Below are positions 13,858 to 62,410 of a stretch of DNA of 64,000 bases, one piece after another (the first letter of the stretch is position 1; each line of letters begins with the position of its first letter). The notes beneath the pieces were generated by a model, which saw nothing but the letters and a program-made list of their open reading frames with translations, was not told the DNA's origin and did no database searches. A program made the translations under genes and the position numbers. The stretch is from Thermoanaerobaculia bacterium (GTDB lineage Bacteria; Acidobacteriota; Thermoanaerobaculia; Multivoradales; JAHEKO01): NCBI GenBank assembly GCA_046756565.1, contig JBHHWO010000003.1, positions 144 through 64,143 of the forward strand, given 5' to 3'.

Positions 13858-13878
13858 GTTTCTAATAGGAACGACGCG

Positions 13879-14322: not shown

Positions 14323-14325
14323 GCG

Positions 14326-14763
14326 ATGAAGATCAAGAAAATGCAAGCCAGTGACGAGATCCCGACTTCCTCGATGGCGGACATCGCCTTCCTGCTGATC
14401 ATCTACTTCATGGTGACCACGACTTTTGCGGCTACCCGCGGTCTGGACTTCTCGCTACCTCCCGAGGACGACACCCCGCCGATGGTCGAAAAGGAAGAGG
14501 CGGTGCTCATCGAGATCCAGGCCGGCGGCGTCTACGTGGTCGACCAGAAGCCCATGCCCCTGTCCGAGATCCTCGACTACCTCAAGCCGAAGCTCGAGCG
14601 AAACCCGAAGAAGCCGGTCATCATCCGGCCGCAGCCAGATGCCCAGTACGGCTACATGGTCGCGGTCTTTGACGAACTGCGGCAGGGCGAGGACAAGATC
14701 GGCATGAAGGTGGACAATATCTCCATCCCGACACAGCGCGAAATCGAAATGTTCTGGTTCTAG
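14326..14763 (+). CDS. exbD: Second ExbD/TolR paralog
   Basis: MADIAFLLIIYFMVTTTF...; 3 bp after the first exbD. Confidence 0.85.
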   Translation: MKIKKMQASDEIPTSSMADIAFLLIIYFMVTTTFAATRGLDFSLPPEDDTPPMVEKEEAVLIEIQAGGVYVVDQKPMPLSEILDYLKPKLERNPKKPVIIRPQPDAQYGYMVAVFDELRQGEDKIGMKVDNISIPTQREIEMFWF

Positions 14764-14772
14764 GAGAGCAGA

Positions 14773-47089: not shown

Positions 47090-47725
47090 ATGAACGATTC
47101 CACCTCTGCGAGAATCGCACTCCTGGTCACCGGCGCCTCGGGCATGAGCTTGCCACGAGTGTTGCTCGGTACGCTCGCGAGCCATCCGGCCATCGAGAAG
47201 ATTCACCTGGTGGTCTCGGCGGGAGCCAGCCAGGTGCTCAAGCATGAGCTCGATCGTGACAAGACCGGAGCCGAGGACCTCATTGGCGCTGCTGCGATCG
47301 AACCGGCGGACCGCGAGCGGATTACGGTCCATCGCGACAGCGAGCTTGACGCTGCGGTCGCGTCCGGCTCGTACCGGCTGACCGGAACCGCGATCGTGCC
47401 CTGCAGCGCGGGTACCCTGGGTGCGCTCGCCACCGGCAGCGCGCGTACGCTGATCCAGCGCGTCGGTGCGGTGGCACTCAAAGAGGATTGGCCCCTGGTT
47501 CTCGGTTTCCGCGAAACTCCCCTTTCGATCGTCCACCTCGAGAACCTCCGCCGCCTTGCCTACGCGGGGGCCGTGATCCTGCCACCCGTGCCCGCCTTCT
47601 ACATCGGGGGTGACTCGATGGATCGCTTCCTCGAGCACTACAGCCTCCGGATCATGGATCGACTGGGTCTTGCCGCGGTCGACTCGAGCGAGCTTCGCTG
47701 GCCGCCTCGGGGACACCTTTCCTAG
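47090..47725 (+). CDS. ubiX: UbiX/Pad1-family flavin prenyltransferase
   Basis: ...IALLVTGASG...TAIVPCSAGTLGA... flavoprotein signature. Confidence 0.8.
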   Translation: MNDSTSARIALLVTGASGMSLPRVLLGTLASHPAIEKIHLVVSAGASQVLKHELDRDKTGAEDLIGAAAIEPADRERITVHRDSELDAAVASGSYRLTGTAIVPCSAGTLGALATGSARTLIQRVGAVALKEDWPLVLGFRETPLSIVHLENLRRLAYAGAVILPPVPAFYIGGDSMDRFLEHYSLRIMDRLGLAAVDSSELRWPPRGHLS

Positions 47726-47858
47726 GTGTCCCCTTCTCGGCTGGTTTTCGGAGTCTCCTCCGGTCGCAACGGCGCATCATCCGTACGTCGCGACCTGGGC
47801 GTAGAGGAGGCGGTACCCCGATATACTCGCAGTCCCAAGACCGCCACGTTTCGCGCCC

Positions 47859-48995
47859 ATGAGCACGCCAATCCCCGACATCCGACCCGAGAGGTTCCCG
47901 ATTCCGCTCCAGACTCTGGCCGCGAAGGTCCGCGACGGCGAGCGCCTCGACGAGGCCGACGCACTGTTGTGCTTTTCGACCCCGGACATCCTTCATCTCG
48001 GGCGCCTGGCCGGAGCCGTTCGGACCCAACTCCACGGCGATGTCGCCTATTTCAACGTCAACCGGCATATCAACCCGACCAACATCTGTGTCTACACCTA
48101 CGACTGCAAGTTCTGTGGATTCGCCGCGCTCCCGGGCGAGGGTCATGCCTGGGAGATGTCCCACCAGGACGTCTACGAGCACGCCGCCAAGCAGGGCGGT
48201 GACTCGGTCACCGAGTTCCACATCGTCGGTGGACTTCACCCGGACCTCTCACTCGAGTGGTACTGCGAGATGCTCCGGGGCCTCAAGCAGCGGTTCCCGA
48301 GCGTGCATCTGAAGGCCTTCACCGCGATCGAGATCGGCTGGTTCGCGCAGCACGAAAAGATTCCGATACGCGAGGTACTGGAGCGCCTGCGCGCCGCCGG
48401 CCTGGGATCTCTGCCCGGCGGCGGTGCCGAGATCTTCCACGAGCAGGTCCGCAAGGAGATCTGCAACGGCAAACTCGATTCCGACGAGTGGATCGAGGTT
48501 CATCGGACCGCTCACGGGATGGGCATCCCGTCGAACTGCACCATGCTCTACGGCCACATCGAACAGGCCGACCACAAGGTGGACCATTTGATGCGACTGC
48601 GTCAGCTCCAGGACGAGACCCGCGGCTTCAACTGCTTCATCCCCCTGGCCTATCACCCGGAGAACAACTACATGGGGCTCAAGTACCACACCACCGGTAC
48701 CGAAGACTTGCGCCACCTGGCCGCCTCGCGACTGGTGCTCGACAACGTGGCGCACCTCAAGGCCTACTGGATCATGATCTCGCCGAAGCTGGCTCAAGTG
48801 GCGCTTTCGTTCGGAGCCGACGACATCGACGGGACGGTCGTCGAAGAGACCATCTACCACATGGCGGGCGCAGAAACCGATCAGTACATCTCGCGCGGCG
48901 AGCTCGAGCGAATCGTCCGCGAGGCCGGCTACACGCCAATCGAGCGGAACACTCTCTACCAATCGATCCGCAGCGCGGAAGCCGTGAGCGTGTGA
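47859..48995 (+). CDS. Radical SAM enzyme of the CofH/MqnC/MqnE family (futalosine-pathway menaquinone biosynthesis candidate)
   Basis: ...NICVYTYDCKFCGF... radical-SAM Cys cluster; TIM-barrel-like remainder; adjacent to ubiX. Confidence 0.7.
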   Translation: MSTPIPDIRPERFPIPLQTLAAKVRDGERLDEADALLCFSTPDILHLGRLAGAVRTQLHGDVAYFNVNRHINPTNICVYTYDCKFCGFAALPGEGHAWEMSHQDVYEHAAKQGGDSVTEFHIVGGLHPDLSLEWYCEMLRGLKQRFPSVHLKAFTAIEIGWFAQHEKIPIREVLERLRAAGLGSLPGGGAEIFHEQVRKEICNGKLDSDEWIEVHRTAHGMGIPSNCTMLYGHIEQADHKVDHLMRLRQLQDETRGFNCFIPLAYHPENNYMGLKYHTTGTEDLRHLAASRLVLDNVAHLKAYWIMISPKLAQVALSFGADDIDGTVVEETIYHMAGAETDQYISRGELERIVREAGYTPIERNTLYQSIRSAEAVSV

Positions 48996-49636
48996 CCGAG
49001 TCGCCGCCGGTACACTACATCGCGGTCGATGGGCCGATCGGAGTCGGCAAGACGACTCTGGTCGAGCTCCTTGCGCAGCGCTTCGACGGGGTCAAGCTCC
49101 TCGAAGACGTGGAAAACCCGTTCCTGCCTTCGTTCTACGAAGACCGGCCCGGAGCCGCCTTCCAGACCGAGCTCTACTTCCTGCTCTCCCGATTCAAGCA
49201 GCAGCAGGACGTCGCGCAAAGGAACCTGTTCGATCGCTTGATGGTCGCGGACTATACCTTCCCCAAGAACCGCATCTTCGCCTACCTGAATCTGTCGGAC
49301 GACGAGCTCATGCTGTTCGACAAGCTCTACACGCTACTCGAGCCGCAGCTGGCGGCACCCGATCTCGTGATCTACCTGGTTGCCGATCTCGACACCTGCA
49401 TGGAGCGAATCGACAAACGCAGGCGTGATTTCGAACGAGACATGTCGACCGAGTACATGACCGAGTTGATCGACGCTTACAATCACTACTACCACTACTA
49501 CAACCGCTCACCGCTTCTGGTCGTCGACACCCGCAGCCTGAACTTCGCCCAGCAGCCCGAGCATTTCGATGACCTCATTCAGAGGATCTCGAGGCCGCTA
49601 AAGGGCACTCACTACTATCAGCCGTTGGGCGGTTAG
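48992..49636 (+). CDS. Deoxynucleoside kinase (dCK/dGK family)
   Basis: GTG start in a GTGA overlap with the preceding stop; P-loop AVDGPIGVGKTT; ...ERS... and DR motifs of dNK enzymes. The track ORF from 48257 is an out-of-frame shadow upstream. Confidence 0.75.
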   Translation: MTESPPVHYIAVDGPIGVGKTTLVELLAQRFDGVKLLEDVENPFLPSFYEDRPGAAFQTELYFLLSRFKQQQDVAQRNLFDRLMVADYTFPKNRIFAYLNLSDDELMLFDKLYTLLEPQLAAPDLVIYLVADLDTCMERIDKRRRDFERDMSTEYMTELIDAYNHYYHYYNRSPLLVVDTRSLNFAQQPEHFDDLIQRISRPLKGTHYYQPLGG

Positions 49637-49671: not shown

Positions 49672-51555
49672 ATGGGCTTCGAAAGTCTTGCCGCTAGCGC
49701 TTTGCGCCAGGTGCGCATACGAAATCAAGGTGGTCTCGCAGTGACACTCCCGATCGAAGAAGTCCTCGAGGGCAAGTACGAGATCCTCGAGAAGATCGGT
49801 GAGGGCGGAATCGGATCCGTCTACAAGGTCCGCCACCGGTTGCTCGACGAGATCCGGGTCATCAAGGTCCTGCGGCCCCAAGTCGCGGCCAAGGAAGATC
49901 ATCAGGAGCGCTTCCTTCACGAAGCCCGCATGGCGATTCGGCTCAAGCACCCGAACATCGCCCAACTCCACGATTTTTCGATCTCCGACGAAGGCACCGC
50001 CTTCATCGTCATGGAGTTCATCGACGGCATCGCACTCGACGCCCTACTCAAGGCCTCCGGCCCGCCCAGCCTCGATCTGACGCTGGAGATGGCGCAGCAG
50101 TCATTGCGGGCACTGGCCTATCTCCACTCTCATGAGCTGGTTCACCGCGATGTGTCGCCGGACAACTTGATGCTGACCACGTCGTTCGACGGCACCGCGC
50201 GCATCAAGCTGATCGACCTGGGCATCGCCAAGAACCTGGCCGAGGAAAGCAACCTGACACAGACGGGCGTTTTCCTGGGCAAGGTCCGTTACTGTTCACC
50301 CGAGCAGTTCTCGAGCGCGGAAGATCAGACCCGGCCGCTCGATCATCGCAGCGACATCTACTCATTCGGACTACTGCTTTACGAGCTCCTGACCGGTATC
50401 TACCCGTTCAAGGGCGAGACCTTTGCCGAGCTGGCGGGCTGCCATCTGTTCCAGCCGCCGATCGGTTTCGATCAGACGGATCCCGAGGGCAAGGTGCCCG
50501 ATGAGTTGCGCGAGGTCGTGCTGCGATCCATCGCAAAGGATCCCGAGGACCGCTTCTCTACCGCCGAAGAGTTCGTTCAGGAGCTGCTTCCGTTTCGCGA
50601 CACCGAGAGCTCGATCGAGGACGAGCTCAATCGCACGGTCGAGCGAACGACCTCAGCGATCGCTCTCAAGAACTACACTCGCCCGGGTTCCACCCAGGAC
50701 CGTCTGAACGCCGAGTTCGGGCTCGGCACCACGGCCGCGCCCAAGCCGCTGACCGAGGCTCGGCAGCCAGAAGCAGCTGGCGCAAGAGGTACGGCCTCGG
50801 CGGTATTGCCTACAGCCGGCGGCCCGGCCAAGAAATGGTGGTGGATCGCCGGAGGCGGCGCAGCCGTGGTCCTGGCGGGTCTCGGCATCTGGCTCGGTAG
50901 CTCCGTTCTGGGCCGAGACTCGGGCGACACGGCGGGTGACGGCTCCTCCGAGGCGCAGGCTATAGAGATCGCGCAGACCGAGAGATTCACTCTTCCCGAG
51001 GTTGACCCCGACCGGGTGGCTCTCGACGCCGCGCTGCCTCCTCCGCCCACCGGAGACGAAGAGAAAGCGGCCCCTCAGGTCGAACCTGGAACTGATGCTC
51101 CCGGTCCCTCCCAGCTCGGACCGGACCCGGACCCGGAAGACGGACGCCGGCCTCCGCTCGGTGACCCTCAGTTCCAGGGGAGACCCCCACCCCACGGTGG
51201 GCGTCCGCCGCCGGGGAGTCGGCCGGGAGAGCTCGGTCCACCACCGATCGGCCGGACTTCGGAGATCTATGAGACCAGCGTGGGGGTGGTCGCTCCGGTG
51301 CTGGAGATGCTGCCCGAGCCGATGTATCCGGACGGCAAGCGGCCCAAGAACCGTCTCACGGTGGACGTCGCGGTGCTGGTCGACGAGGAAGGCAAGGTGC
51401 TCACCGCCCGGGTCGAGGCCGGCGCAGGGTTTCGGCGCCGCTTTCGCGACGCCGCCATCGAGACCGCGAAGCGATCGAGATTCCGCCCCGCGGTTCGCAA
51501 CGGCGTCGCAGGCCGCATGTGGACCAGTCTCAAGATCGTATTCGAGACCGAGTAG
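49672..51555 (+). CDS. Ser/Thr protein kinase with TM helix, Pro-rich periplasmic linker and C-terminal TonB_C-like domain
   Basis: Kinase motifs IGEGGIGSVYKV, VIKVL, HRDVSPDNLML, DLGIAK, SPEQ. TM WWWIAGGGAAVVLAGLGIWLG. PPxxG-rich spacer. C-terminus ...PEPMYPDGKRPKNRLTVDVAVLVDEEGKVLTARVE...AAIETAKRSRFRPAVRNGV... resembles TonB_C. Confidence 0.8.
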   Translation: MGFESLAASALRQVRIRNQGGLAVTLPIEEVLEGKYEILEKIGEGGIGSVYKVRHRLLDEIRVIKVLRPQVAAKEDHQERFLHEARMAIRLKHPNIAQLHDFSISDEGTAFIVMEFIDGIALDALLKASGPPSLDLTLEMAQQSLRALAYLHSHELVHRDVSPDNLMLTTSFDGTARIKLIDLGIAKNLAEESNLTQTGVFLGKVRYCSPEQFSSAEDQTRPLDHRSDIYSFGLLLYELLTGIYPFKGETFAELAGCHLFQPPIGFDQTDPEGKVPDELREVVLRSIAKDPEDRFSTAEEFVQELLPFRDTESSIEDELNRTVERTTSAIALKNYTRPGSTQDRLNAEFGLGTTAAPKPLTEARQPEAAGARGTASAVLPTAGGPAKKWWWIAGGGAAVVLAGLGIWLGSSVLGRDSGDTAGDGSSEAQAIEIAQTERFTLPEVDPDRVALDAALPPPPTGDEEKAAPQVEPGTDAPGPSQLGPDPDPEDGRRPPLGDPQFQGRPPPHGGRPPPGSRPGELGPPPIGRTSEIYETSVGVVAPVLEMLPEPMYPDGKRPKNRLTVDVAVLVDEEGKVLTARVEAGAGFRRRFRDAAIETAKRSRFRPAVRNGVAGRMWTSLKIVFETE

Positions 51556-51585
51556 CGTCAGGCCGCCCTGCCCCGACGTCTTCGG

Positions 51586-53811
51586 TTACAGGATCTCGAC
51601 TTCGACCGGGCCTTTGAGCCGCATCATGCAGGCCAGTCGGCACGGGCCGGCTTCGAGCTCACAGATCTCCTCCAGCGTCTCACGCTCCTGATCCGAAAGC
51701 TCGTCCACGTTTTCGGCGCCCGACAACACGCGCACGGGGTCGCTGCCGCAGATTCCGGAATGACACTCCGCGGTGATCTGCACGCCCGCGGCTTCGGCCG
51801 CCTCGCAGACGTTGGACCCGGCGGCAACCGGCACCGACTCGCCGGTACCCTTGAAGGTAGCGGTCGGGCCCTCGGCCGCGGCGCTCCCGTCCGCTTCCCG
51901 GGCAGCGCCAACGGCCGGCGGTGACTCGGCAAGGCCCTCGTCCAGAACCTCCTCGGCGCCCCGGCTGAACAGGAAGGACTGCTGTCCCATGCGGATCCGG
52001 TCTCCGTGCTCCAGGAGGCGCGCGGCGCGGACTTTCAAATAGGTGCCGTTGACGCTTTTGAGGTCCTTGATCAGGATCGCTCCGCCCTCGGCGGACACCG
52101 CGAGATGGCGCCGCGAGAGCGTCGTGTCCTCGGCGTCGAGGATCCCCCCGGGCGCCTCGCGTCCGAAGATCATCGGCTTGTCTCCGAGCTCGTAGCGTCC
52201 CTCCTCGGCGCCCGCTGCGTCGTAGTGAATCACCGCCATTTCGCCGCCATCGATCGAGAACAGCAGGAACTGGCGGCCGACACGCACCAAGTCCCGGTCT
52301 CCGACCTCGATCTTCTTGGCAGCTTGCGCGCGCAGGAAAACGCCCGTGGCTCCACCGTCGTCGCGCACGAAATAGCCTTCCTCGCTGTGCGCCACCGATC
52401 CGTGGACATTCGACAGTGTCGAGTCGTCGGCAAACGCCAGATCACAGCCGGAGCGCCCGATGGTCACGACTCCTTTGACGGGCAGCGGATACTCGTCCTC
52501 CTGGACACCCGTGGGAAGCACGCGAATCAAGAGGGGCCCAGCGGAGACCTCTTCGCGGCCGGGCTCCAGGCTCTCCTCGGGCGGGCCGCTAGGCTCCGCC
52601 GACCCGGCCGGCGTCCCGGCGACGGCGGATTCGGAGACCTCGAGCTCCGCCTCCTGGATCTCGACGTCGATCTGCTCTTTGCCGTCGATCCGCTGCCGGA
52701 TCACCTGGGCCACTCGCACGCCGTCACGCAGGGCCGACTTGATGTTGCCGCGATGCTTGACCTCCTTGAAGCCGGCAGGGTCGGCGTCGAAATCCTCGGT
52801 CTCGAAGTAGGCCTGGCTCAGCAGATCTCCCACCAGGTACAAGTTGTTCTGGCAGGTCTCGAGGCACCGATTGACCACCATGCGCTTCCTGTTCTTGGGC
52901 CCGCCGTTGACCATGTGAACCCCGAACGAGTTGAGGAGGGCTTCCGGAATGTCCTCGCCGATGCAGGCGATGACCTGCGGCTTGGGAAACTCCAGCAGAG
53001 TGAGCTCGCCGGGCCGTCCGTCCATCCGGCGCCGGTCGGTGCGAATCGCCAGGTACTCCTCTCGGTCGTCGCCGGTCAAGACGGCCACCGGCTCGCTGCG
53101 CCGGTAGTAGCGGATGTTGCCGTTGCCGACATAGGCGGCGAAAAACGCATCCGCCAGGGCCTTGGAGATCCTCGGCATCTTGTCGCCGCGGTAGGACCAG
53201 TAGACCGAAGTGCGGTCTCGGGCCTCGCTCTTGGCCTCGGAAATGGCGATCACCGCCTCGGCGGCCGAGGTTCCACCTCCGATAACGCAGGCGGGCTGCC
53301 CGACGAATCGCTCGGCCTCGGAAAGCTTGTAGGCGATGCCGTCGGTATTGCCGGGGATATCGAAGCGACGCGGTACGCCGCGGCCCAGAGCCAGGACCAC
53401 ATGACGGGCTTCGTAATGCTCGCTTTGGCGTGTCCGGTGGTTCCACAGTGTCGCGCGATAGCCGCCGTTTTCGAGTAGCTCGAGCTCCGAGAGCTCGGCG
53501 CCCACCCGGACCGGAACCTCGTGCTCTCGATAGAGCTCTTTCCATTGCTCGCACATGTCGTCTTTGTCGATCGGATCAAAATGGAGACAGGAGACCAGGT
53601 TCCCTCCCACCGGGAAGCACATCTGATCGCCGCCACCGAAGCTCGGCAGGATCAGCTTGTCCTTGGCGTAGTCGCGAATGCGCTTCATCAGGTCGTCGTA
53701 GTCGACCACCAGAACGCCGATGCCGAGCTCGACCGCGCGGAAGGCCGTGGCCGTACCGGCCGGGCCACCGCCGGCGATGAGAACGTCCACCGTTTTCGAA
53801 GACCCAGCCAT
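51586..53811 (-). CDS. Multidomain protein: two-dinucleotide-binding FAD/NAD(P) oxidoreductase, two FHA domains, C-terminal ferredoxin-like (2Fe-2S-type) domain
   Basis: VLIAGGGPAGTA and VIGGGTSAAEA Rossmann motifs. FHA 1: TIGRSGCDLAF...VFLR...VGRQFLLF. FHA 2: IFGRE...LSRRHLAV...IKDLKSVNGTYLKV...GDRIRMGQQSFLF. C-terminus ...AECHSGICGSD...CRLAC.... ATG at 53811 (4 bp after the upstream gene's stop); the track extends to 53889. Confidence 0.7.
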   Translation of the reverse strand: MAGSSKTVDVLIAGGGPAGTATAFRAVELGIGVLVVDYDDLMKRIRDYAKDKLILPSFGGGDQMCFPVGGNLVSCLHFDPIDKDDMCEQWKELYREHEVPVRVGAELSELELLENGGYRATLWNHRTRQSEHYEARHVVLALGRGVPRRFDIPGNTDGIAYKLSEAERFVGQPACVIGGGTSAAEAVIAISEAKSEARDRTSVYWSYRGDKMPRISKALADAFFAAYVGNGNIRYYRRSEPVAVLTGDDREEYLAIRTDRRRMDGRPGELTLLEFPKPQVIACIGEDIPEALLNSFGVHMVNGGPKNRKRMVVNRCLETCQNNLYLVGDLLSQAYFETEDFDADPAGFKEVKHRGNIKSALRDGVRVAQVIRQRIDGKEQIDVEIQEAELEVSESAVAGTPAGSAEPSGPPEESLEPGREEVSAGPLLIRVLPTGVQEDEYPLPVKGVVTIGRSGCDLAFADDSTLSNVHGSVAHSEEGYFVRDDGGATGVFLRAQAAKKIEVGDRDLVRVGRQFLLFSIDGGEMAVIHYDAAGAEEGRYELGDKPMIFGREAPGGILDAEDTTLSRRHLAVSAEGGAILIKDLKSVNGTYLKVRAARLLEHGDRIRMGQQSFLFSRGAEEVLDEGLAESPPAVGAAREADGSAAAEGPTATFKGTGESVPVAAGSNVCEAAEAAGVQITAECHSGICGSDPVRVLSGAENVDELSDQERETLEEICELEAGPCRLACMMRLKGPVEVEIL

Positions 53812-53815
53812 CTCT

Positions 53816-54670
53816 TCAACCTTCCTCGACCAAACGTCCCTCGAGGCGGCCGAAGACGACCCGCTCTCCGACCGGAAGCTCGACTTCACCCTCCGTCTGG
53901 GCGCCCGCCACGAACGTGTGGTTGCGGCTGCCTTCGTCGCGCACCAGCACCTTGTCGCCCGTCACGGTCACTACCGCGTGACGGCGAGAGACGTCCGGGA
54001 CGTTCAGGCGCACTCGGGCGTCCTTGGTGCGACCGACGAGGTTTTCGCCCTCGTCGAGCTGGAAGCGCTGGACTCGGCCCGCCATCTGGAGCTCCAGAAA
54101 CAGGCGGCGGCCGGGCGCACCCGGCTGCGCAGGCCTGCTTGCGCTCGCGCTCGCCTCGGCCAGGATCTCGGGAATCGGCACGACGACCTTCTCGACACGA
54201 GTACCGCCGTCGTCCGCCAGCTCCTTGGACGCGGCCGGCTTCTTTTCTGCCAGCTCGTCCTCGGACCGCTTCTCCTCGGCTCCGTCGTCGCGCAGGGCCG
54301 CCGGCAGAATTGGGATCTCGCCGTCCGTTTGCGTCTTGTCGACGGGAGGGATATCGATGGTGTCGAACTCACCGCCTTCGGTATCGAGAGCCTGAAAGAT
54401 AAACCTCTCGCTACCGCCGAAGCAGACCATGCTGAGCGGACCGATCGGCTCCGGCCGCTCGAGGCGCACGCCGTCCACTTCGGTGCCGTTCAGGCTTCCG
54501 AGGTCCTCGATCAGATACCTCTCGCTGTCGGTATCGAACGCAATCCGGGCGTGCTCGGTCGACACCACCGAAGCCTGGATGCACACCGTGCTCTCGGCCG
54601 AGCGCCCGATCGTGGCCTCGGCGCCGATCTCGAACTCACCGTGCTCGCGTGATATCAGTTTTGCCTTCAT
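53816..54670 (-). CDS. Tandem FHA-domain protein
   Basis: FHA 1: ...ATIGRSAESTVCI...VSTEHARIAF...YLIEDLGSLNGTEVDGVRL.... FHA 2: ...LVGRTKDARVRLNVPDVSRRHAVVTV..VLVRDEGSRNHTFV.... ATG at 54670 overlaps the upstream stop by 4 bp. Confidence 0.75.
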   Translation of the reverse strand: MKAKLISREHGEFEIGAEATIGRSAESTVCIQASVVSTEHARIAFDTDSERYLIEDLGSLNGTEVDGVRLERPEPIGPLSMVCFGGSERFIFQALDTEGGEFDTIDIPPVDKTQTDGEIPILPAALRDDGAEEKRSEDELAEKKPAASKELADDGGTRVEKVVVPIPEILAEASASASRPAQPGAPGRRLFLELQMAGRVQRFQLDEGENLVGRTKDARVRLNVPDVSRRHAVVTVTGDKVLVRDEGSRNHTFVAGAQTEGEVELPVGERVVFGRLEGRLVEEG

Positions 54671-56247
54671 GGTGCTTCGTCCAAGTACAAGAGTAGCTCC
54701 GACCGGCGACTCTTGTTGGGGTGGAACAGGTGGCACGTGACACAGCGATCCGACGCCAGGCGAGCGGCATGGCACCGCCGGCAGGAGTCGATCGCCGGCA
54801 GGTTCTGGATCGACGCGTTATCGAGGCTCGTATCCGGAGGGTCTTCGGCTTCGAGCTCGTCTTCGATCGGGATGCGGTCGTGGCAATCCAGGCAGCGCGC
54901 CTGCAGGATGTGCGCGCGATGATCGAACTCCGCCCGCCGCAGGGCTCGCTGGTCCTTCTGGACACGGCCGATGGTGGCGTCCTCGACCCGGTGACACTGC
55001 CTGCAGGGCGTCGTCAGCTCTTCGACCAGAAGCTCGATCGAGACCACCTCGTCTTCCGAGAGGTCGGTGCTCTTATCGCCCAGGGCCAGCTCGAAGACCG
55101 TCTCGTCGAGCGCCGCGAACGGCTCTTCCACCTCGCGCGCGAGCTTTCCGAGGAGATCCTCGATCGCGGCCAGCTCGGCCTGAATCTCTTGCTCCGGCCG
55201 GCCCCGCAACCCGATCGCCTGCTCCTCGAGGGCGCCGATGGCCTCTCTATAGAGCGCTCGCAACTCATGGGGCTCGGTGTTCGGCGAGGTCTCGAGGAGA
55301 TCGGCCAAACCCGCGCTCGGATAGAGCATCTGGCGCAGCATGCGCAGGTTCTCCAGAATCCACGGATCTCGGTGGTGGACCGGCCCCTTCACGACCAGGG
55401 AACCGCGGCGGCGATACTCGTTGGGGTCGGTGAAATACGCCCAGCGGATGCCCGCGCCCTGGTCGGCGATGATCTGCTCGAGTGTAGCCACGCCTGGTGC
55501 TCCAGCGCCGGTGCGGATCGGTAGCCCCGGAGTCGAGACCGTCGACGTCAGGTGGCAGGAGTCGCAGTGCCGATCGAAGTCGATCAGCTCGAAGCTCCGG
55601 CCATCCGGTTTGGCGTTATGGCAGTAAAGGCAGGATCTTTCGACGTCGGTGAGCTTCTGGCGCTTCATCACTTCGCGTACGTGGTGAACGTGGGCAAATG
55701 ACAGGCTCTCGTTATCTGCGATCTGCTCGGCGACGAAGTCGAACTCGGGGTGCTCGCTCGTGAAGGAATCGAAATGGCATCGCTCGCAGCGCTGGTCGGC
55801 GACACGAGTGATCGAGGCATCCCGGCCCTCGTGCTCGAGGTGACAGGTGAAGCACGGCACCTCGTGCTCTCCCGGCACCAGGCGGCGGAAATCGTCGGAC
55901 CGGAAGATGTAGTGAGCAGCGAAGTTGTACACACCCAGCTCATCCCCGAATTTTTCGTGACAGCTCGAACAGAGCTCGTCACTCGCCTGTCGCGCTTCCG
56001 GATCGTGGCAGCTCGCGCACTCACTCTCGAAGGCGGCGTGATTGGACGACAGTGGACCATTTGAAGACAAGGAGCCACGGCCCATGAACTCGTCGACCGC
56101 TATGACGCCGAGTACCAACCCGATCAGAGCCGCTCCCAGGAGCAGCATCTTGTTGCGCGCCGGTCGCGGCGGGTACGCATTGGCGACGGGAAGCTCGCTT
56201 TCGCCGAAGCTCCCTTTCTGGCCGGTCCACTTGTCCTTGGGGCTCAT
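54667..56247 (-). CDS. Membrane-anchored decaheme c-type cytochrome
   Basis: Ten CxxCH motifs (CASCH, CSSCH, CFTCH, CERCH, CLYCH, CDSCH, CRQCH, CLDCH, CRRCH, CVTCH). N-terminal signal anchor MLLLGAALIGLVLGVIAV. ATG at 56247 with a GGAG RBS. The track extension to 56415 overlaps the upstream gene. Confidence 0.8.
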   Translation of the reverse strand: MSPKDKWTGQKGSFGESELPVANAYPPRPARNKMLLLGAALIGLVLGVIAVDEFMGRGSLSSNGPLSSNHAAFESECASCHDPEARQASDELCSSCHEKFGDELGVYNFAAHYIFRSDDFRRLVPGEHEVPCFTCHLEHEGRDASITRVADQRCERCHFDSFTSEHPEFDFVAEQIADNESLSFAHVHHVREVMKRQKLTDVERSCLYCHNAKPDGRSFELIDFDRHCDSCHLTSTVSTPGLPIRTGAGAPGVATLEQIIADQGAGIRWAYFTDPNEYRRRGSLVVKGPVHHRDPWILENLRMLRQMLYPSAGLADLLETSPNTEPHELRALYREAIGALEEQAIGLRGRPEQEIQAELAAIEDLLGKLAREVEEPFAALDETVFELALGDKSTDLSEDEVVSIELLVEELTTPCRQCHRVEDATIGRVQKDQRALRRAEFDHRAHILQARCLDCHDRIPIEDELEAEDPPDTSLDNASIQNLPAIDSCRRCHAARLASDRCVTCHLFHPNKSRRSELLLYLDEAP

Positions 56248-56260
56248 GAGCTCAGCTCCG

Positions 56261-57103
56261 CTAGTAGCGGAGCACCCCCCAAAGATGGAGCCCGAGAAAG
56301 ACGAGCAGCAGAAGCGACGTCGGAACGTGCAGCCAGAGCCAGGCACGCAGGGCCTGTTGCAGTGTGTAGTGCGCGTCGATCTCGAACTTGGCCCGGTAGA
56401 GCTCTTCCAGCTCATCGAGCTTTTCGGCCTCTTCCTCGGGCAGCTTCTCGCGCAGATAGCGGACCGATCGGAGTCTCTCCCGGATACCGCCGGTGATGTC
56501 GAAGAAATAGACCCACCGACGGTTCGGCGCTTGGAGCTTCGTCGCCATCGCGCTGTCGTGCAGATCCCGGATCTCGGTGGCGCTCGAGGCGGCCAGCTCT
56601 GCGGCCCGGGCGCGAATGTCGTCTACGAGCTCCGGAATCCTCTCGTAGAGCACCTCGGTCGACAGACCCGAGGTCATCAGGCGTGGGATCCAGCGCTGCA
56701 TCCCTCGCCCCGCGAGACCGCCGATCACCGTCCAGATGCTCAAGCCGAGCAGCCAGATGGTCACCCATCCCTCGGGCATTCCGAAACCACTGTGAACAAG
56801 AACCAGGAGCAGGAAGAGCGCGCCCCCATACACGTGGAGCACGAGCCAGAGGCGCGACCGGCCGAGGCCGAGGCGGCTGAAGAACGACATCGCCCGCTTG
56901 CGGGCGCTGAGCGCGGTGACCAAGAGCAGCAGCGCCGCGGCGGACCAGCCGAAGATGAGGCTGAGGGTTCCGCCCGGCGCCGCGTCCCACCAGATCGTTC
57001 CGGCGGCATACGCCGACACGACCGCCAGGCACAGGAGCACAAAGCCCCAGACGCCACCGAGTGGAGCTCCCGGCACCGAGAGACCGCTACCCGGTTCGGC
57101 CAT
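56261..57103 (-). CDS. Integral membrane protein with ~5 TM helices and four TM-embedded His (putative di-heme b-type cytochrome)
   Basis: ATG at 57103 in a TGATG junction with the upstream gene. TM helices contain ...LVLHVYGG..., ...LVHSGFG..., ...LWLHVPT..., ...LGLHLWG.... The 355-aa N-terminal extension in the track (to 58168) is an out-of-frame shadow of the upstream gene. Confidence 0.6.
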   Translation of the reverse strand: MAEPGSGLSVPGAPLGGVWGFVLLCLAVVSAYAAGTIWWDAAPGGTLSLIFGWSAAALLLLVTALSARKRAMSFFSRLGLGRSRLWLVLHVYGGALFLLLVLVHSGFGMPEGWVTIWLLGLSIWTVIGGLAGRGMQRWIPRLMTSGLSTEVLYERIPELVDDIRARAAELAASSATEIRDLHDSAMATKLQAPNRRWVYFFDITGGIRERLRSVRYLREKLPEEEAEKLDELEELYRAKFEIDAHYTLQQALRAWLWLHVPTSLLLLVFLGLHLWGVLRY

Positions 57104-58746
57104 CAGGCATCCCCCGTCAAGAGCAATTGAAACTCGTCCAGCGAGCCGATCCGAAACGCGCAGCCCTGCGGGCAGTTGCTGACGCAGGCCGGTCCGTGCC
57201 CCGTGTCCTCGCACAGGTCGCACTTCGAGGCGACCGCCCGGTTCCGTCCCCGCAGGCCGGTCGGAACCATGTCGTCGGGCCACACGGTGGCGGTCTCGTG
57301 CATCACGATGGCGTCGTAGGGGCAGTTGTTGGCGCAATTCGAGCATCCGATGCATACATCCTCGTCGACCGCCACGACTTCGCCGACACCGGCGCGGTGA
57401 ATCGCACCTGTCGGGCAGCCCACCAGGCATACCGGATCGCGACAGTGGTAGCAGGATTTGGCGACCAGCAGATTGCCGTACTTGTTGCCCTCGCGCACGA
57501 AGCGCGGCCTGCCGCCGTGTGTGTCCGCGCAGGCCCGCACGCAGTCGTCGCAACGGGTGCAGGTGTTGAGGTCGATCGCCAGGATGCTGTTGCCCTGGAC
57601 AAGGCCGCTGCGCAGCGCCACTTCGGTGAATTCGGCAAAGCCCACATTGCGGCGCGAGAAACCCGCTTCGCGAATTCGATCGGTGGCGCTCTGCCAGAGC
57701 TGGTCCTCGATCTCCGGCTGGCTCTGAATCAGCTGCTCGACCACCGTCCGGGGGATCTTGATCAGCTCCGCATACTCCACTGACAGTGCAGTCGACTGCC
57801 ATTCGTCCAGGGCCTCGACCACGAACTCGACTTCGCCCAGGGTCATTCCCTTCGACAGATAGGAGACCGCGATCTCGCCGTCGGCGTAGCCCTGCATGAG
57901 CTTGACGAAGCCCGAGCGAACGAGATAAAGGCAGTCGGCGGCCTCCCCGGCCTTGACGATCTCCTCCTCCGGCTCGCACGACACCAGCTCGACATTCTCC
58001 TTGAGCGCGTCGACAAAGACGTCGGTGCAGCCCTGGAAGAGCGGCGTGTTCTTGAGCTGAACCGCCAGCGAGCGCTCCCGGTACAGCTCGTCGAGCTCGG
58101 CCTTGAGCGCCTTCGACTTGCGCTTCATCAGCCGGAGCGCCGCCACCTTGATCTGGACCAGGCGGCACTCGCCGGCGGTCCTGGCGGTCACCGACTGCGG
58201 CCAGCCGCTCATCGAGCCGATCTCACCGATCAGCTCACCCTTGCCCAGGCGCGCCGCTGCGCCCTCAGGCAGATCGAAGTCCATGGTGGCGAGCAGCGTG
58301 ATCCGGCTCGGATCGACCCGAGTCGCCCTGCGCATCAGGACAGTGCCGCCGGCCACGGTGTCGGTCGGCGATTCGGCCGGCGAAGCTCCGATCACCGTGC
58401 GTGAAAGATCGAAGATCGGCCGGGCTCCAGTGGCTTCCGGCCCGACGCCCTGAACGAAGACTTCGACTTCGCCCTCGAGAACGTAAAACGCCAGATCGAT
58501 GTAGGTCCCCTCTTCGAAGAGAACCGAGCCGTTCGCCCAGCGCGCGATCGAGATATCGGGGCTGATCTTCTCGAGGAACCTGTCGTCGAAATCCGAGAAC
58601 AGCTCAATCGCCTTGAGCTCCTCGACCGACGGCTTGTCCGAGATCTCTGCCAGGCCGCTCTCGTCGTCGTACGAGGACCAGCGATCCCGGTACTGCTCCA
58701 ACCGGCGAAACTCGGTCTTGCCCGGCCCGAGGACCTCGTCGCTCAT
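57103..58746 (-). CDS. Fusion of two cyclic-nucleotide-binding (CAP-effector) domains with an NrfC/DmsB-like 4x[4Fe-4S] ferredoxin module
   Basis: CNB 1: ...ELFSDFDDRFLEKI...FEEGTYIDLAFYVLEGEVEV...GELIGEIG...RSVTARTAGEC.... CNB 2: ...LFQGCTDVFVDAL...GEAADCLYLVRSGFVKL...GEVEF.... FeS: CTRCDDCVRAC, CYHCRDPVCLVGCP, CIGCSNCANNCP, CDLCEDTGHGPACVSNCP. No Tat or Sec signal. Confidence 0.8.
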   Translation of the reverse strand: MSDEVLGPGKTEFRRLEQYRDRWSSYDDESGLAEISDKPSVEELKAIELFSDFDDRFLEKISPDISIARWANGSVLFEEGTYIDLAFYVLEGEVEVFVQGVGPEATGARPIFDLSRTVIGASPAESPTDTVAGGTVLMRRATRVDPSRITLLATMDFDLPEGAAARLGKGELIGEIGSMSGWPQSVTARTAGECRLVQIKVAALRLMKRKSKALKAELDELYRERSLAVQLKNTPLFQGCTDVFVDALKENVELVSCEPEEEIVKAGEAADCLYLVRSGFVKLMQGYADGEIAVSYLSKGMTLGEVEFVVEALDEWQSTALSVEYAELIKIPRTVVEQLIQSQPEIEDQLWQSATDRIREAGFSRRNVGFAEFTEVALRSGLVQGNSILAIDLNTCTRCDDCVRACADTHGGRPRFVREGNKYGNLLVAKSCYHCRDPVCLVGCPTGAIHRAGVGEVVAVDEDVCIGCSNCANNCPYDAIVMHETATVWPDDMVPTGLRGRNRAVASKCDLCEDTGHGPACVSNCPQGCAFRIGSLDEFQLLLTGDA

Positions 58747-60914
58747 CGCGATCCTCCTGTCGATCCACCGGAACCGTCAGCGCGGCCGGCCGAGACATTG
58801 GTCGGGCTGACCAGTTTGTAAAGCTCCCGGAGCCGTTTCTGAACCGCCAGGAGAAGCTCCTCGATCGACGCTTCGCCCACCTTGGGAAGCGGTTTGAAAT
58901 CCACGCCCCCCGATGCAATTCCCGCCGCCGAGCCGACGGTGGCCCCCGGGGTCAGCGGTCGCGGCGTCGGCGGGCGGAGTACCCACTCTTCCGAGCGGCG
59001 CTGCTCGGCGAACGTCGTCGTCGACCGAACCGATCCCGAGCTTTCACTCGAGCTCGCACTCTGCCCACGACCGCCCCCGGAAGAGCCCGCCGGCAGCGTC
59101 GCCACGCGCACGTCGGGTACCGGGCCCCGGGACGCGATCACGGCCCTCGCCGACGACGAGATCTCGCCGTCCGCCAGCCGGTGCTGCCAGTGGCGCACTT
59201 CGTTCATGCCGCGCACATAGTCGAAGTCCGACCCGGACGGATGCCCTGCCGACAGCAGGCGCCGATCGGTGACGTAGTGGCAGCCGGTGCAGGTCTCGGC
59301 CCGCGTCTTCGACTGGCGCAGATCCTTCTTGCCCAAACCGAGCGCCGCCAGGTGCCCGGGCCGCTGCCGGCCCAATTCTTTGCCGGCTTCGTTCTTGTGC
59401 GGCTCGAGCCAGTCCGCCGCGGGCCCGTGGCAGCTCTCGCAACCGACCCCGTCGAGCACCTCCCGCGACTCCTTGCCCGAGAGAATCGTGCCGTGGCAAT
59501 CCATGCACACCGCGCGACCGGTGGTCATTTGCGATGTCTTGACGCCATAGAGGCGCGCGATCCTGAGGACGTCGGGATCGCCGTCGAAGAACGGATTCAC
59601 CGAGCGGGAGTGCTCATGACCGAACCACCATTGGTTCTGCTCGGTGTGACAGCCGGCGCAATTGACCGGACCGATGGTCCTACGCTGCGAAGCCGGCCGG
59701 ATACGGATCTTGAACCCTCCCGCGACCCCCGCCGCCCCGGTCGATGCTGCTCGGGCGCCCGGCTCCGCAGAGGCGCCGCCGCTCGAGGCGGGCACGGTCG
59801 AGCCGGGAGAGCTTCCTTCGCTCGGCGGAGTCCGATCTCGCACACCGGAAGCACCGCCACCCGCGGCCGGGGTCCCGTCGGCCGCGGCGACCTCGAAGTC
59901 TTCCTCGGGCTCGATTCCACGAACCAGGTCATCGAGAGATGCGAGCTGCGATGCGTCGGCAGCGCCCAGAAAGCTCCTCGTCGCGCGCGCGATCGTGTCG
60001 GCGGCAGCGAGGAGAGACGCCTCGTTGCCGGGCACCGTGCGCACAGCCTTGACCGCGGCCAGCATCTCATCGACCTGAGAGATCCCGGCTGCGCGGCTGA
60101 CCGCTCGCAACTCGGACACCGCGCTTCGCACCCTGCGGCTCATCGCTTTCGAATAAATGCCGTCGACGGTCGCCTTGGCCATTCCGCGCAGGCTGTACTC
60201 GAGATCGAGCGCCCGGCCGACGACGTACATAACGCGCTTGCGCGACATGGAACGTTCGCGATTGACCGGATCGGTACGGTCGCGAAAGGATCTCAGGAAG
60301 TTGTGTCGAATCTGACCCTGGCTCCACTCGACCAGCTCGAAGCCGGCGCTGCCGGTCGTGTGTCCCCCTTCGTTCACGAGACGTTCGAGCGGTACCGAGT
60401 GGCAGCTGAAGCAGTTCGCGGCGACCGGATACAGGTCGGACGGCCGCCGCATTCCGGCGTTGCGGCTGTCCGCGATGCGCTGGCGGCGGTGCGCTGCCGA
60501 TTCTCCCGTATGGTCCTCGGCCGCACCGTAGTCGTTGTGGACGTCGAGGTAGTCCGCCCCGGCGCCGTGACACGACTCGCAAGAGACGCCCGAGACCACT
60601 CGGATCTGCCCGCTCTGGATGACCGGCGTGTAGTGGCAGCTGAAGCAGAGGCTGTCGCGCTTGATCAGGCGAAAGCCCATCTTTTTGGCGATCGTCTCCG
60701 CCTGCTCCTTCTTGTGAAGTGTCTTGAATCCGGTCGCGTGCGGAGTTGTCTTCCAGACCACCGCCTCGTGGATGTGGCATTCACCGCATTTCTCCGCCGT
60801 AACCACCTTGTTCGGGTCGATCTTGGCGTACTCGAAGAAGGGCGGTTGGGCCCGCAGGGGCGCGCACAGCGCCAGGCCGATCAGCAACACCCCCGCTACG
60901 ACTGGTCGTTTCAC
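58743..60914 (-). CDS. Secreted octaheme c-type cytochrome with Ser/Gly-rich low-complexity segments
   Basis: Signal peptide MKRPVVAGVLLIGLALCAPLRAQ. Eight CxxCH motifs (CGECH, CFSCH, CESCH, CFSCH, CAGCH, CMDCH, CESCH, CTGCH). Confidence 0.8.
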   Translation of the reverse strand: MKRPVVAGVLLIGLALCAPLRAQPPFFEYAKIDPNKVVTAEKCGECHIHEAVVWKTTPHATGFKTLHKKEQAETIAKKMGFRLIKRDSLCFSCHYTPVIQSGQIRVVSGVSCESCHGAGADYLDVHNDYGAAEDHTGESAAHRRQRIADSRNAGMRRPSDLYPVAANCFSCHSVPLERLVNEGGHTTGSAGFELVEWSQGQIRHNFLRSFRDRTDPVNRERSMSRKRVMYVVGRALDLEYSLRGMAKATVDGIYSKAMSRRVRSAVSELRAVSRAAGISQVDEMLAAVKAVRTVPGNEASLLAAADTIARATRSFLGAADASQLASLDDLVRGIEPEEDFEVAAADGTPAAGGGASGVRDRTPPSEGSSPGSTVPASSGGASAEPGARAASTGAAGVAGGFKIRIRPASQRRTIGPVNCAGCHTEQNQWWFGHEHSRSVNPFFDGDPDVLRIARLYGVKTSQMTTGRAVCMDCHGTILSGKESREVLDGVGCESCHGPAADWLEPHKNEAGKELGRQRPGHLAALGLGKKDLRQSKTRAETCTGCHYVTDRRLLSAGHPSGSDFDYVRGMNEVRHWQHRLADGEISSSARAVIASRGPVPDVRVATLPAGSSGGGRGQSASSSESSGSVRSTTTFAEQRRSEEWVLRPPTPRPLTPGATVGSAAGIASGGVDFKPLPKVGEASIEELLLAVQKRLRELYKLVSPTNVSAGRADGSGGSTGGSR

Positions 60915-62410
60915 TAGAACTTCAAGACCAGTTCAAAGCGTCCGCCAAAGCCGGTCAGGTCGTCCGAGGCGCCGAGGCCCTCGATGTAGCTCGCGAAGCC
61001 GTCCCAGACCAGGACCACGTGTTTTCCCTTGGCCATCTGGTAGCGAACGGTCGCGGCAGCCTGGTTAGCCACTCCGGAGGCCGTTCCGACCCGAAGACCG
61101 AGTTCGCCGAGCAGCTGGCGGCGAGCCAAGGGACCGTAGAACTTCTGGTAGCCGATCGCGCCGCCGGCGACGTTCCGCGCCCGGCTCGACAGCGGCGCCC
61201 CGTAGTTACCCAGGCCGACCGCGGCAAACGAGACTCCCGCGGGACCCAGCGGCCCGCCCGAAGCCGGCCCACTCGCCGCCGCCGAGTACTCGTCGAGCGC
61301 CAGGAAAGTCGTGAAATAGAACAGATCGAAGCTGTGGTGCGGGGTCCAGGACACCTCGCTGAAGAGCAGCGTGCCGTCGGTGGCAAACGCAGTCTCCTCG
61401 TCCAGGGCAAGCGAGCTCAGGAGTCGAAACGACGTATTGATTTTCCCGATGCGCTGAACCGCACTCACACCGACGCCGACAAGATCGCCGCTCGAGTCGC
61501 TACCGGTCACGTAGGCGAGATCGACATCGATGGTCGAGGTCCGGACATCGGTCGAGGTCAATACCGCAAACAGCTCGGCGTCGCCGTCTTCCACATTGTT
61601 GCGATGCAGGTCGCTCGCCCCGAAGAACAAGGTCGCTCGAAAGTTCGACGTGTTCTTGGGCAACAGGGTGTTGCGAGTGATCCCGACGCCATCTATCGAG
61701 TCATTGATCAGCATGCCTTCCTGGAAGATCAACAGCTGCCGGCCGATCGAGAAACCGACGTCGGTGCGTCCGAAGTCCTGCTTGTCGATCCCCGGAAAAA
61801 TCTCGCCGAACTCACCCTCGAAGTACAGACTCTGGATCTCGGCGTTGAGCTCATCGCGGAAGGCGTCGTCGTCGCCAAACAGCGCCTGGAACTCGGGGCT
61901 CCGCGAGCTGGGCTCGAGGATGTAGCTGGTGAACCGGCCGTCCTGGTCGAAATTGCGGAAACCCAGCACCAGCCGCTCGGTTCCGGTGAGCTGCAAGTTG
62001 GCGAACAGATCGAGCCGATTGGCCCACTCGGTGATCCGGAAGTCGTCGACCTCGAAACTCTGGATCGCGCTGCGCAGCGTGCCGAAAACGATCAAGGTCG
62101 GCTGCCACACGGCGCCGGTCGGAAGCTTGAACCCCGGATTGATGTTGCCGGTGCCCAGATACGGATTGCCCAGCTCGAGCAGAAGCCGTGGCCGCTCGGG
62201 AAGATCCTCGAGCAGCGGAATGTACTCGTCGGTAACCGCGCTCGAGTCATGGGCGCCGTCGTCGCTTTCGCCGTGCGCCTCCCCGACCTCGGGGTCTGAA
62301 GCGACTTCCACCGCGACCGCCGCATGGGCCGGTACACCGGCTCCGGTGGCAAGCAACAGAATCAGACCACCGGCCGCCGCGAGGAGTCCGAGGTCTCTCC
62401 TGCGAGTCAT
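60914..62410 (-). CDS. Outer-membrane beta-barrel protein (porin-like) encoded inside the cytochrome operon
   Basis: Signal peptide ...LLAAAGGLILLLATGAGVPAHA. Alternating amphipathic beta-strand pattern throughout. C-terminus ...GGRFELVLKF ends in the aromatic residue typical of OMP terminal strands. Confidence 0.6.
   Translation of the reverse strand: MTRRRDLGLLAAAGGLILLLATGAGVPAHAAVAVEVASDPEVGEAHGESDDGAHDSSAVTDEYIPLLEDLPERPRLLLELGNPYLGTGNINPGFKLPTGAVWQPTLIVFGTLRSAIQSFEVDDFRITEWANRLDLFANLQLTGTERLVLGFRNFDQDGRFTSYILEPSSRSPEFQALFGDDDAFRDELNAEIQSLYFEGEFGEIFPGIDKQDFGRTDVGFSIGRQLLIFQEGMLINDSIDGVGITRNTLLPKNTSNFRATLFFGASDLHRNNVEDGDAELFAVLTSTDVRTSTIDVDLAYVTGSDSSGDLVGVGVSAVQRIGKINTSFRLLSSLALDEETAFATDGTLLFSEVSWTPHHSFDLFYFTTFLALDEYSAAASGPASGGPLGPAGVSFAAVGLGNYGAPLSSRARNVAGGAIGYQKFYGPLARRQLLGELGLRVGTASGVANQAAATVRYQMAKGKHVVLVWDGFASYIEGLGASDDLTGFGGRFELVLKF

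Follow-up and report, generated by a model that had tools for sequence, protein, structure and literature searches.

We analysed a gene for a transmembrane serine/threonine (Ser/Thr) kinase and the redox gene cluster that converges on it in a stretch of 64,000 nucleotides from a Thermoanaerobaculia bacterium (assembly GCA_046756565.1, contig JBHHWO010000003.1, positions 144 to 64,143 of the forward strand), and this whole stretch is called the window. The kinase gene is the open reading frame (ORF) spanning 49672-51555 on the plus strand, which encodes 627 amino acids (aa). A public protein of 604 aa (P0001), recorded as “MAG: TonB family protein [Thermoanaerobaculia bacterium]” (MAG, metagenome-assembled genome), is 100% identical to it and begins 23 codons downstream of the ORF start, at GTG 49741, which is preceded by a good Shine-Dalgarno sequence, AAGGTGG. 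The true start of the kinase is therefore probably GTG 49741, with 49672 as the alternative. The features of the gene and of its 3' side are as follows (TM, transmembrane; pLDDT, predicted local distance difference test).

49672-51555 (+): Ser/Thr kinase gene, from the ORF list; public model start 49741
49777-50577 (+): Hanks-type kinase domain, from Pfam Pkinase, motif reading and pLDDT 80-98 in the full-length model
50254-50268 (+): activation-loop LTQTG, from motif reading and 39 orthologues
50686-50718 (+): juxtamembrane motif GSTQDRLNAEF, from motif reading and 39 orthologues
50836-50913 (+): single TM helix, from sequence reading and the full-length model
50914-51240 (+): disordered Pro/Gly/acidic periplasmic spacer, from composition and pLDDT below 50
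51241-51552 (+): TonB_C-fold domain (Pfam match 51358-51546), from Pfam, NCBIfam, AlphaFold2 and PDB matches
51556-51585 (no strand): tail-to-tail spacer of 30 bp that lacks a convincing intrinsic terminator

On the minus strand, one tightly packed operon of eight genes runs from the window end down to 51586, and its genes overlap by 4 nt or are separated by gaps of at most ~13 nt.

51586-53889 (-): FAD/NAD(P)-type oxidoreductase with two FHA domains and a 2Fe-2S ferredoxin domain, from domain searches; probable start ATG 53811, which matches P0121 (741 aa)
53816-54775 (-): FHA-linker-FHA protein, Pfam FHA 105 bits in two stretches; probable start 54670
54667-56415 (-): inner-membrane-anchored decahaem cytochrome c, with 10 CxxCH and one N-terminal TM helix; probable start 56247
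56261-57100 (-): polytopic membrane protein, candidate dihaem cytochrome b, with invariant His and no family match
57103-58746 (-): cytoplasmic cyclic-nucleotide-binding and 4Fe-4S ferredoxin protein, from Pfam and NCBIfam
58743-60914 (-): secreted multihaem cytochrome c, with 8 CxxCH
60914-62410 (-): porin-like outer-membrane protein candidate, with a signal peptide, no Cys, C-terminal ...ELVLKF and no Pfam match
62407-63999 (-): multihaem cytochrome c, probably truncated at its 5' end where the window stops (605-665 aa in orthologues)

The 3' ends of the two convergent units are 30 bp apart, as the original prediction had stated, with the kinase stop codon at 51553-51555 and the minus-strand stop codon at 51586-51588. 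A pattern scan of this spacer returned no intrinsic terminator, and its fold z-scores of -0.2 and -1.1 were not significant. Four FHA domains had been assigned to the operon, and Pfam found them as two in each of the two minus-strand genes nearest to the kinase. The G-R and S-x-x-H residues that bind phosphothreonine (pThr) are kept in all four domains and the Asn in three of them, and their best sequence matches in the PDB are GarA/OdhI. The start of the FHA-linker-FHA gene at 54670 overlaps the stop codon of the decahaem cytochrome gene as ATGA. The reductase belongs to a large family, with at least 873 relatives at E <= 1e-30 (the 120 best at >=54% identity), which includes KSB1- and Deltaproteobacteria-labelled proteins and carries no names other than “FHA domain-containing protein” or “FAD-dependent oxidoreductase”.

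The three cytochromes contain 10, 8 and at least 4 CxxCH motifs, respectively, and none gave an above-threshold Mtr match (Mtrc-MtrF_II-IV_dom scored 26.9 and 22.4 bits, the threshold being 30). Four histidines of the 279-aa membrane protein (H89, H103, H244 and H258) are invariant across nine orthologues, and this His-rich protein is a candidate dihaem cytochrome b that may join the 4Fe-4S protein to the decahaem cytochrome. The porin-like protein is conserved across loci, and its N-terminal extension is followed by a strongly conserved IPL..P.RP..L.E.G.P.LGTG, low-GC lineages included. The gene content of the cluster suggests an electron path that leads from the cytoplasm out to the cell surface. 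The FAD/2Fe-2S reductase and the cyclic nucleotide (cNMP)-binding 4Fe-4S protein would stand on the cytoplasmic side, the His-rich membrane protein and the anchored decahaem cytochrome at the inner membrane, and two multihaem cytochromes with the porin-like protein beyond it.

Just upstream of the kinase, genes for a UbiX-type flavoprotein and a CofH/MqnC-like radical SAM enzyme (47090-48995, +) are followed by a deoxynucleoside kinase gene (48980-49636), and this block is syntenic in the closest relative only (L001). A second Hanks kinase of the window, with an N-terminal Response_reg receiver and a Pkinase domain, is encoded at 9318-11630 on the minus strand.

Domains and fold of the kinase protein

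The complete Hanks-type kinase domain that had been predicted was borne out by Pfam Pkinase (PF00069), which matched aa 36-302 with 154 bits (threshold 31.7, E 6e-45), and by the presence of all the catalytic motifs: the G-loop GEGGIGSV, the Lys in RVIKVL, the alpha-C Glu (HEARMA), HRDVSPDN, DLG and SPE. Because the catalytic residues are invariant across 39 orthologues, the kinase is predicted to be active, and a pseudokinase reading was rejected on the same ground. The first Thr of the activation-loop LTQTG is also invariant in these orthologues, and we take this motif to resemble the TQT autophosphorylation site of PknB. In the juxtamembrane motif GSTQDRLNAEF, which is a short helix in the model, the Thr and Phe are invariant in the same set; the motif is a candidate pThr docking site. 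The GSTQxRLxxxF form occurs in ~35 of 48 related kinases, which belong to a large acidobacterial family and carry any C-terminal domain (TonB_C, PEGA-like or none).

The protein has one hydrophobic helix only, WWWIAGGGAAVVLAGLGIWLGSSVLG (aa 389-414), which is preceded directly by KK, indicating an N-in topology with a cytoplasmic kinase portion of ~365 aa. The spacer that follows (aa 415-535) contains 26 Pro and 16 Gly in 121 aa, in agreement with the single TM helix and Pro/Gly-rich spacer proposed earlier. The full-length structure model is ordered as a folded kinase, a short juxtamembrane helix, one TM helix, ~110 disordered residues and TonB_C, and it contains no further folded domain.

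The assignment of the C-terminus to TonB_C, for which a Pfam scan had been suggested, was confirmed by a match of aa 563-625 to PF03544 with 35.4 bits (gathering score 24.6), and NCBIfam TIGR01352 (tonB_Cterm) scored 29.1 against a cut-off of 27.1. Some orthologues fall just under the TonB_C threshold (20.6-30.5 bits) and yet are clearly homologous. The fold agrees with the family call. An AlphaFold2 model of the last 104 aa, built on an alignment of homologous tails, had a mean pLDDT of 92.5, and its 14 best PDB matches were all TonB C-terminal domains (probability 0.95-1.00, TM-score 0.5-0.7), including 6i97_D, 1u07, 8rd6 and 2gsk_B, from E. coli, Pseudomonas, Salmonella, Neisseria and a FusB homologue. 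With this confident model and matches to TonB only, the chance-match reading of the TonB_C call was rejected.

A canonical exbB-exbD-exbD-tonB operon present in the window (13183-15489, +) served as an internal control for the features of a real TonB in this genome, and the product of 14773-15489, which had been called a bona fide TonB, deserves the name with a Pfam TonB_C score of 81.7 bits. The TM helix of this TonB carries a His (AAVILHIIF), whereas that of the kinase is purely hydrophobic with neither a His nor any other polar residue, and the S-x-x-x-H signature is missing from it. Furthermore, exbBD genes are not adjacent to the kinase in the window or in the linked loci described below. 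The kinase protein is not an energy-transducing TonB because its TM helix lacks the His that couples to ExbBD, and it thus fails two defining features of such proteins.

A tail of the same type was found in 105 of the 120 best kinase homologues in the protein collection. These are nearly all from Acidobacteriota and are named “TonB family protein” or “serine/threonine-protein kinase”. The kinase-TonB_C fusion is therefore common in this phylum, and the fusion alone is not new, although our literature searching found no paper on it. Related kinases sit in tandem arrays with varied C-terminal modules.

Linkage of the kinase with the redox cluster

The co-occurrence of the kinase with the operon, which had been proposed as a check by comparative genomics, was monitored in both directions. 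In a kinase-based scan with one genome per species, 78 loci were searched with the operon proteins, and four acidobacterial ones (L001, L004, L007 and L009) had the cluster in convergent orientation to the kinase, whereas ~20 other acidobacterial kinase loci from outside the clade were without the cluster. A TonB_C kinase stands tail-to-tail with the cluster in the window and in L001, L079, L082, L007 and L099. In a neighbour-joining tree of kinase domains, the linked kinases of the family formed one clade and the unlinked TonB_C kinases fell in another.

When further members of this clade were picked by kinase sequence, with their context not known beforehand (P0016, P0040, P0025, P0029, P0032 and P0015), all six were tail-to-tail with the cluster and had an FHA gene abutting the kinase. 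A seventh (P0011) was left out as uninformative, its contig ending 500 bp past the kinase, and the out-of-clade P0063 was not linked to the cluster. In total, 12 TonB_C-kinase loci were collected, and the co-occurrence is thus repeated in related genomes, with an FHA gene as the direct tail-to-tail neighbour in 11 of them. The abutting gene varies in type among the linked loci and encodes a FAD-FHA-FHA-Fer2, an FHA-FHA or a single-FHA protein, and the tail-to-tail spacing in the linked clade ranges from 5 to 74 bp. The linkage holds from 87% down to ~55% kinase-domain identity. Since the upstream neighbours are wholly different between the blind-pick loci, it is specific to the side of the cluster.

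A search starting from the cluster gave 32 metagenome loci through an alignment of the decahaem cytochrome, in addition to the reductase relatives counted above. Of the clusters found in this independent way, 11 had a flank that could be read, and a flanking kinase was present in nine of these, directly after the last gene in seven. The kinases are of several kinds. Those of L079, L082 and L099 are convergent TonB_C kinases, and that of L118 is a convergent kinase of the same family with a C-terminal membrane anchor only. Co-directional kinases of only 33-35% identity, with PEGA or Ig-like tails, were found in L084, L096 and L097, and a divergent kinase lies at the opposite cluster end in L090 and L091. 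Such unrelated kinases at the cluster flanks belong to other arrangements in distant lower-GC lineages. The FHA content also differs by locus, from both FHA genes through reductase plus single-FHA, single FHA only and FHA-FHA only to none (L099). What is constant is a Hanks kinase beside the redox cluster, usually with FHA proteins, while the ectodomain is exchangeable. TonB_C is not needed for the pairing, as kinases elsewhere have PEGA, PEGA-like, TPR or anchor-only tails or no membrane segment.

Some of these loci have features of their own. Two linked-clade kinases stand in tandem beside the cluster in L004 (22-3337) and L009 (3454-6925), one of them soluble with a helical tail and the other with a TM helix and a PEGA-like tail that has no Pfam match. 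The cluster-linked TonB_C kinase of L082 (7657-9635, -) is split by a frameshift within the kinase domain, which is either a sequencing error or the mark of a pseudogene. In L118 (12382-15488), a MAG labelled Deltaproteobacteria, an FHA-GGDEF gene follows the convergent kinase, and this hints at pThr signalling tied to cyclic di-GMP.

The TonB_C tail of the window kinase was compared with those of paralogues in L003, L005, L010, L013, L014 and L021 and with P0063. The domain is 35-73% identical over ~100 aa across the family. Its last strand carries a G(R/K)MWT motif, GRMWT in the window kinase, which is near-invariant in linked and unlinked paralogues and absent from the real TonB of the window; in TonB, the last strand pairs with the TonB box. 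The cluster-linked clade has a basic patch, (F/A)(R/K)R(R/K)(F/Y)(R/K), at the helix start (FRRRFR in the window kinase), at the place where most unlinked paralogues carry SGLGF(N/E)E, and the net charge of the domain is 0 to +7 where the kinase is linked, while most of the unlinked paralogues have -5 to 0. As the linked clade keeps a basic patch of its own, the patch and the charge pattern fit a clade-specific periplasmic partner.

Probable kinase-FHA pairing and its alternatives

Because kinase and cluster co-occur repeatedly across genomes, the pairing of the kinase with the FHA proteins in control of the redox module is well supported, and we consider it rather probable that this putatively active transmembrane Hanks-type Ser/Thr kinase is a dedicated regulator of the adjacent eight-gene cluster. 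In such a system, the kinase would autophosphorylate on the TQT of the activation loop, probably also on the juxtamembrane Thr of GSTQxRLxxxF, and/or would phosphorylate Thr residues in the FHA proteins. The four FHA domains could then read pThr marks carried by the kinase, by the linkers of one another or by the complex. Such reading would draw the reductase and its FHA-FHA companion to the membrane module or free them from it, and would thereby gate the passage of electrons to or from the porin and the outer cytochromes. The TonB_C domain on its long Pro-rich stalk may serve as a non-energised arm that spans the periplasm and most likely docks a clade-specific envelope partner, and the docking would set the clustering and activity of the kinase. 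In a more specific form, the TonB_C arm would contact the porin-cytochrome complex or an envelope protein reporting its state, and pThr would then recruit the FHA reductase and the FHA-FHA adaptor to the 4Fe-4S/cytochrome b/decahaem complex and gate electron input to the cell surface post-translationally. We put this form forward only tentatively and think it unlikely as it stands. If true, iron oxidisers such as Ferrigenium, whose cytochrome has the FHA domain fused to it, would follow the same logic of FHA, multihaem cytochrome and 4Fe-4S protein.

Several points weigh against the regulatory explanation, and the whole case is one of sequence and synteny. Two clusters (L119 and L120) have FHA genes and show no kinase on the visible flank, and L099 has a TonB_C kinase beside the cluster with no FHA gene there. 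A scan of the main ORFs at 43-64 kb and the genes called at the linked loci showed no PP2C phosphatase, which may be encoded elsewhere. These genomes are rich in kinases, with two in the 64-kb window and tandem arrays at several loci, and the TonB_C-linked loci represent one lineage and not independent events, because all are from Thermoanaerobaculia-like Acidobacteriota. Within the cluster, the membrane protein has no recognised redox motif and no match in Pfam or in the PDB sequence search, and the porin identity is one that we infer. Antisense effects between the convergent genes are possible, given the lack of a terminator between them.

The tail of the flanking kinase varies (TonB_C, PEGA, TPR or none), and the periplasmic input step is therefore not conserved. 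No partner of TonB_C was identified, and the porin-like protein of the cluster has no conserved TonB-box-like strand. Every orthologue of it, also where a PEGA kinase is the partner, has an acidic N-terminal extension rich in His, and a TonB box on this protein was rejected for want of such a strand. The original prediction had combined a kinase-FHA pair controlling the redox module, which the co-occurrence bears out, with a contact between TonB_C and a TonB box as the sensing input, and this second, presumed part is weakened by four points: the tails are exchangeable, the porin-like protein has no TonB box, a His is missing from the TM helix and the fusion is common. The replacement of TonB_C by other tails argues that it would be an exchangeable input or anchor module, accessory to the system and not its core.

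The strongest alternative accepts the pairing and makes TonB_C a passive tether, either a periplasmic, peptidoglycan or outer-membrane anchor or a dimerisation handle, with a kinase that takes its input from the cytoplasm (redox state or a cyclic nucleotide, for instance) and not from a periplasmic contact. Members of the same clade that have another tail or no tail at all (the soluble and PEGA-like ones of L004 and L009, and that of L118 with its TM anchor only) are what such a tether would lead one to expect, as is the porin-like protein without a TonB box. The G(R/K)MWT strand shared by linked and unlinked paralogues suggests a generic rather than a cluster-specific ligand, and cytoplasmic sensor domains (cNMP_binding) are encoded within the cluster itself. 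Against this stand the distinct basic patch and positive net charge kept by the linked clade, and a degree of identity over ~100 aa that exceeds the need of a mere spacer end. We regard a passive tether as possible, if somewhat unlikely.

A second alternative keeps regulation of the cluster by the kinase and removes the FHA domains from it, so that the kinase would act through the cNMP/4Fe-4S protein, a cytoplasmic tail of a cytochrome, a transcription factor or interference by convergent transcription, with the FHA domains reading the marks of other kinases. The kinase and FHA-less cluster of L099 and the many kinases of these genomes speak for it, and the short tail-to-tail spacers, together with the lack of a terminator in the window, imply overlapping 3' ends. 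The FHA gene is nevertheless the direct neighbour in all but one of the 12 TonB_C-kinase loci, and pairing of Ser/Thr kinases (STK) with FHA proteins is an established rule for such gene neighbours (GarA/OdhI, Fha1), which makes this route improbable.

It is still less probable that the protein is a genuine TonB paralogue, energised by ExbBD, which serves an outer-membrane transporter or the porin-cytochrome complex and in which the kinase domain is incidental. The layout of TM helix, Pro-rich spacer and TonB_C and the NCBI name “TonB family protein” favour such a role, and TonB-dependent receptor genes lie 3-5 kb from the TonB_C kinases of two relatives, in L114 (8105-17102) and L117 (2827-5130); two cases do not allow a judgement, and receptors of this type abound in these genomes. 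The role is contradicted by the comparison with the real TonB and its operon made above, by the lack of adjacent exbBD in the linked loci and by the large cytoplasmic kinase portion ahead of the helix. That a member of a hugely expanded kinase family was fortuitously inherited beside the operon is hardly credible, even with all TonB_C-linked loci in one lineage, as the linkage is kept over a wide range of kinase-domain identity despite wholly changed upstream neighbours, and unrelated kinases occur at cluster flanks in distant lower-GC lineages.

Comparison with known systems

The regulation of the redox cluster by the kinase, as favoured here, has a counterpart in PpkA-PppA-Fha1 of the H1 type VI secretion system of Pseudomonas aeruginosa, in which a transmembrane Hanks kinase acts and phosphorylation-dependent FHA binding switches a trans-envelope machine. 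Both systems have a transmembrane Hanks kinase with a non-enzymatic periplasmic domain, encoded with an FHA protein beside a trans-envelope machine. PpkA has a vWA ectodomain and secretion as its output, whereas the kinase described here has TonB_C and stands beside a cytochrome/Fe-S redox chain; furthermore, FHA is fused to a FAD/2Fe-2S enzyme in the window, and no PP2C partner was seen nearby. The actinobacterial STK-FHA pairs, PknB/PknG with GarA/OdhI and PknF with the tandem-FHA Rv1747, have TCA-cycle enzymes and an ABC transporter as targets. The FHA domains of the window have the same pThr-binding residues as GarA/OdhI, which act as kinase-controlled regulators of metabolic enzymes, and the FHA-linker-FHA layout of 53816-54775 resembles the regulatory module of Rv1747. 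The phylum, the kinase ectodomain (PASTA or none in the actinobacterial kinases) and the targets are different.

The kinase shares a TM helix, a Pro-rich spacer and the TonB_C fold with the TonB proteins of E. coli and of the window, and it differs from them in having no TM His, no exbBD linkage, a large N-terminal kinase and a G(R/K)MWT last strand. Its nearest published parallel is the pair GltG/GltJ of the Agl-Glt gliding machinery of Myxococcus xanthus, in which a TonB C-terminal domain (CTD)-like domain docks periplasmic or outer-membrane partners (PMC11761067). As in the kinase, a single TM helix and an extended disordered stretch in the periplasm connect a cytoplasmic signalling domain (FHA in GltG) to the TonB-CTD-like domain (PMC11761067). 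GltG/GltJ lack a kinase domain, and the TM helix of GltG engages a TolQR/ExbBD-like motor, AglRQS, of which none is linked here (PMC11761067). By analogy, they provide a precedent for a TonB_C docking arm on a signalling protein.

For FHA with multihaem cytochromes, our literature searching found only a 2026 preprint on Ferrigenium straubiae, where the gene for a membrane-associated nonahaem cytochrome c with a fused cytosolic FHA has beside it those for a 4Fe-4S protein and a TM protein lacking recognised motifs (bioRxiv 10.64898/2026.01.22.701106). The association is stated there as not seen before, and a kinase is not mentioned (bioRxiv 10.64898/2026.01.22.701106). Likened by description only, the window has the same set of a 4Fe-4S protein, a motif-less multi-TM protein, a single-TM multihaem cytochrome and FHA, the FHA domains standing on separate proteins here and not fused to the cytochrome. 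The Ferrigenium fusion independently supports, by analogy, a role of FHA at the cytoplasmic face of such complexes, and the kinase is a candidate for the missing upstream partner in the FHA-cytochrome association. Syntenic clusters of porins with multihaem cytochromes are known in Acidobacteriota from a preprint that mentions neither FHA nor a kinase (bioRxiv 10.64898/2026.05.27.727921). The cluster is like the MtrCAB/porin-cytochrome complex conduits in encoding multihaem cytochromes with a candidate porin-like outer-membrane protein in a syntenic arrangement, and unlike them in that its cytochromes match the MtrC/MtrF domains only below threshold.

To our knowledge, nearly all that is known of the control of multihaem-cytochrome respiration concerns transcription. 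The kinase clade beside the cluster and the FHA domains within its reductase point to a fast post-translational gating of electron export or import, which would concern abundant, uncultured Acidobacteriota and their neighbours. A large and uncharacterised family of Hanks kinases is also recognised, with a TonB C-terminal domain as an ectodomain uncoupled from ExbBD, and one orthologous group of it has a defined genomic target and is thereby experimentally tractable. These findings together suggest phosphorylation control of an electron-export pathway in these bacteria, and the system is set apart from the known STK-FHA systems by an electron path as its output, by FHA inside a redox enzyme and by a TonB_C ectodomain that is not coupled to ExbBD.

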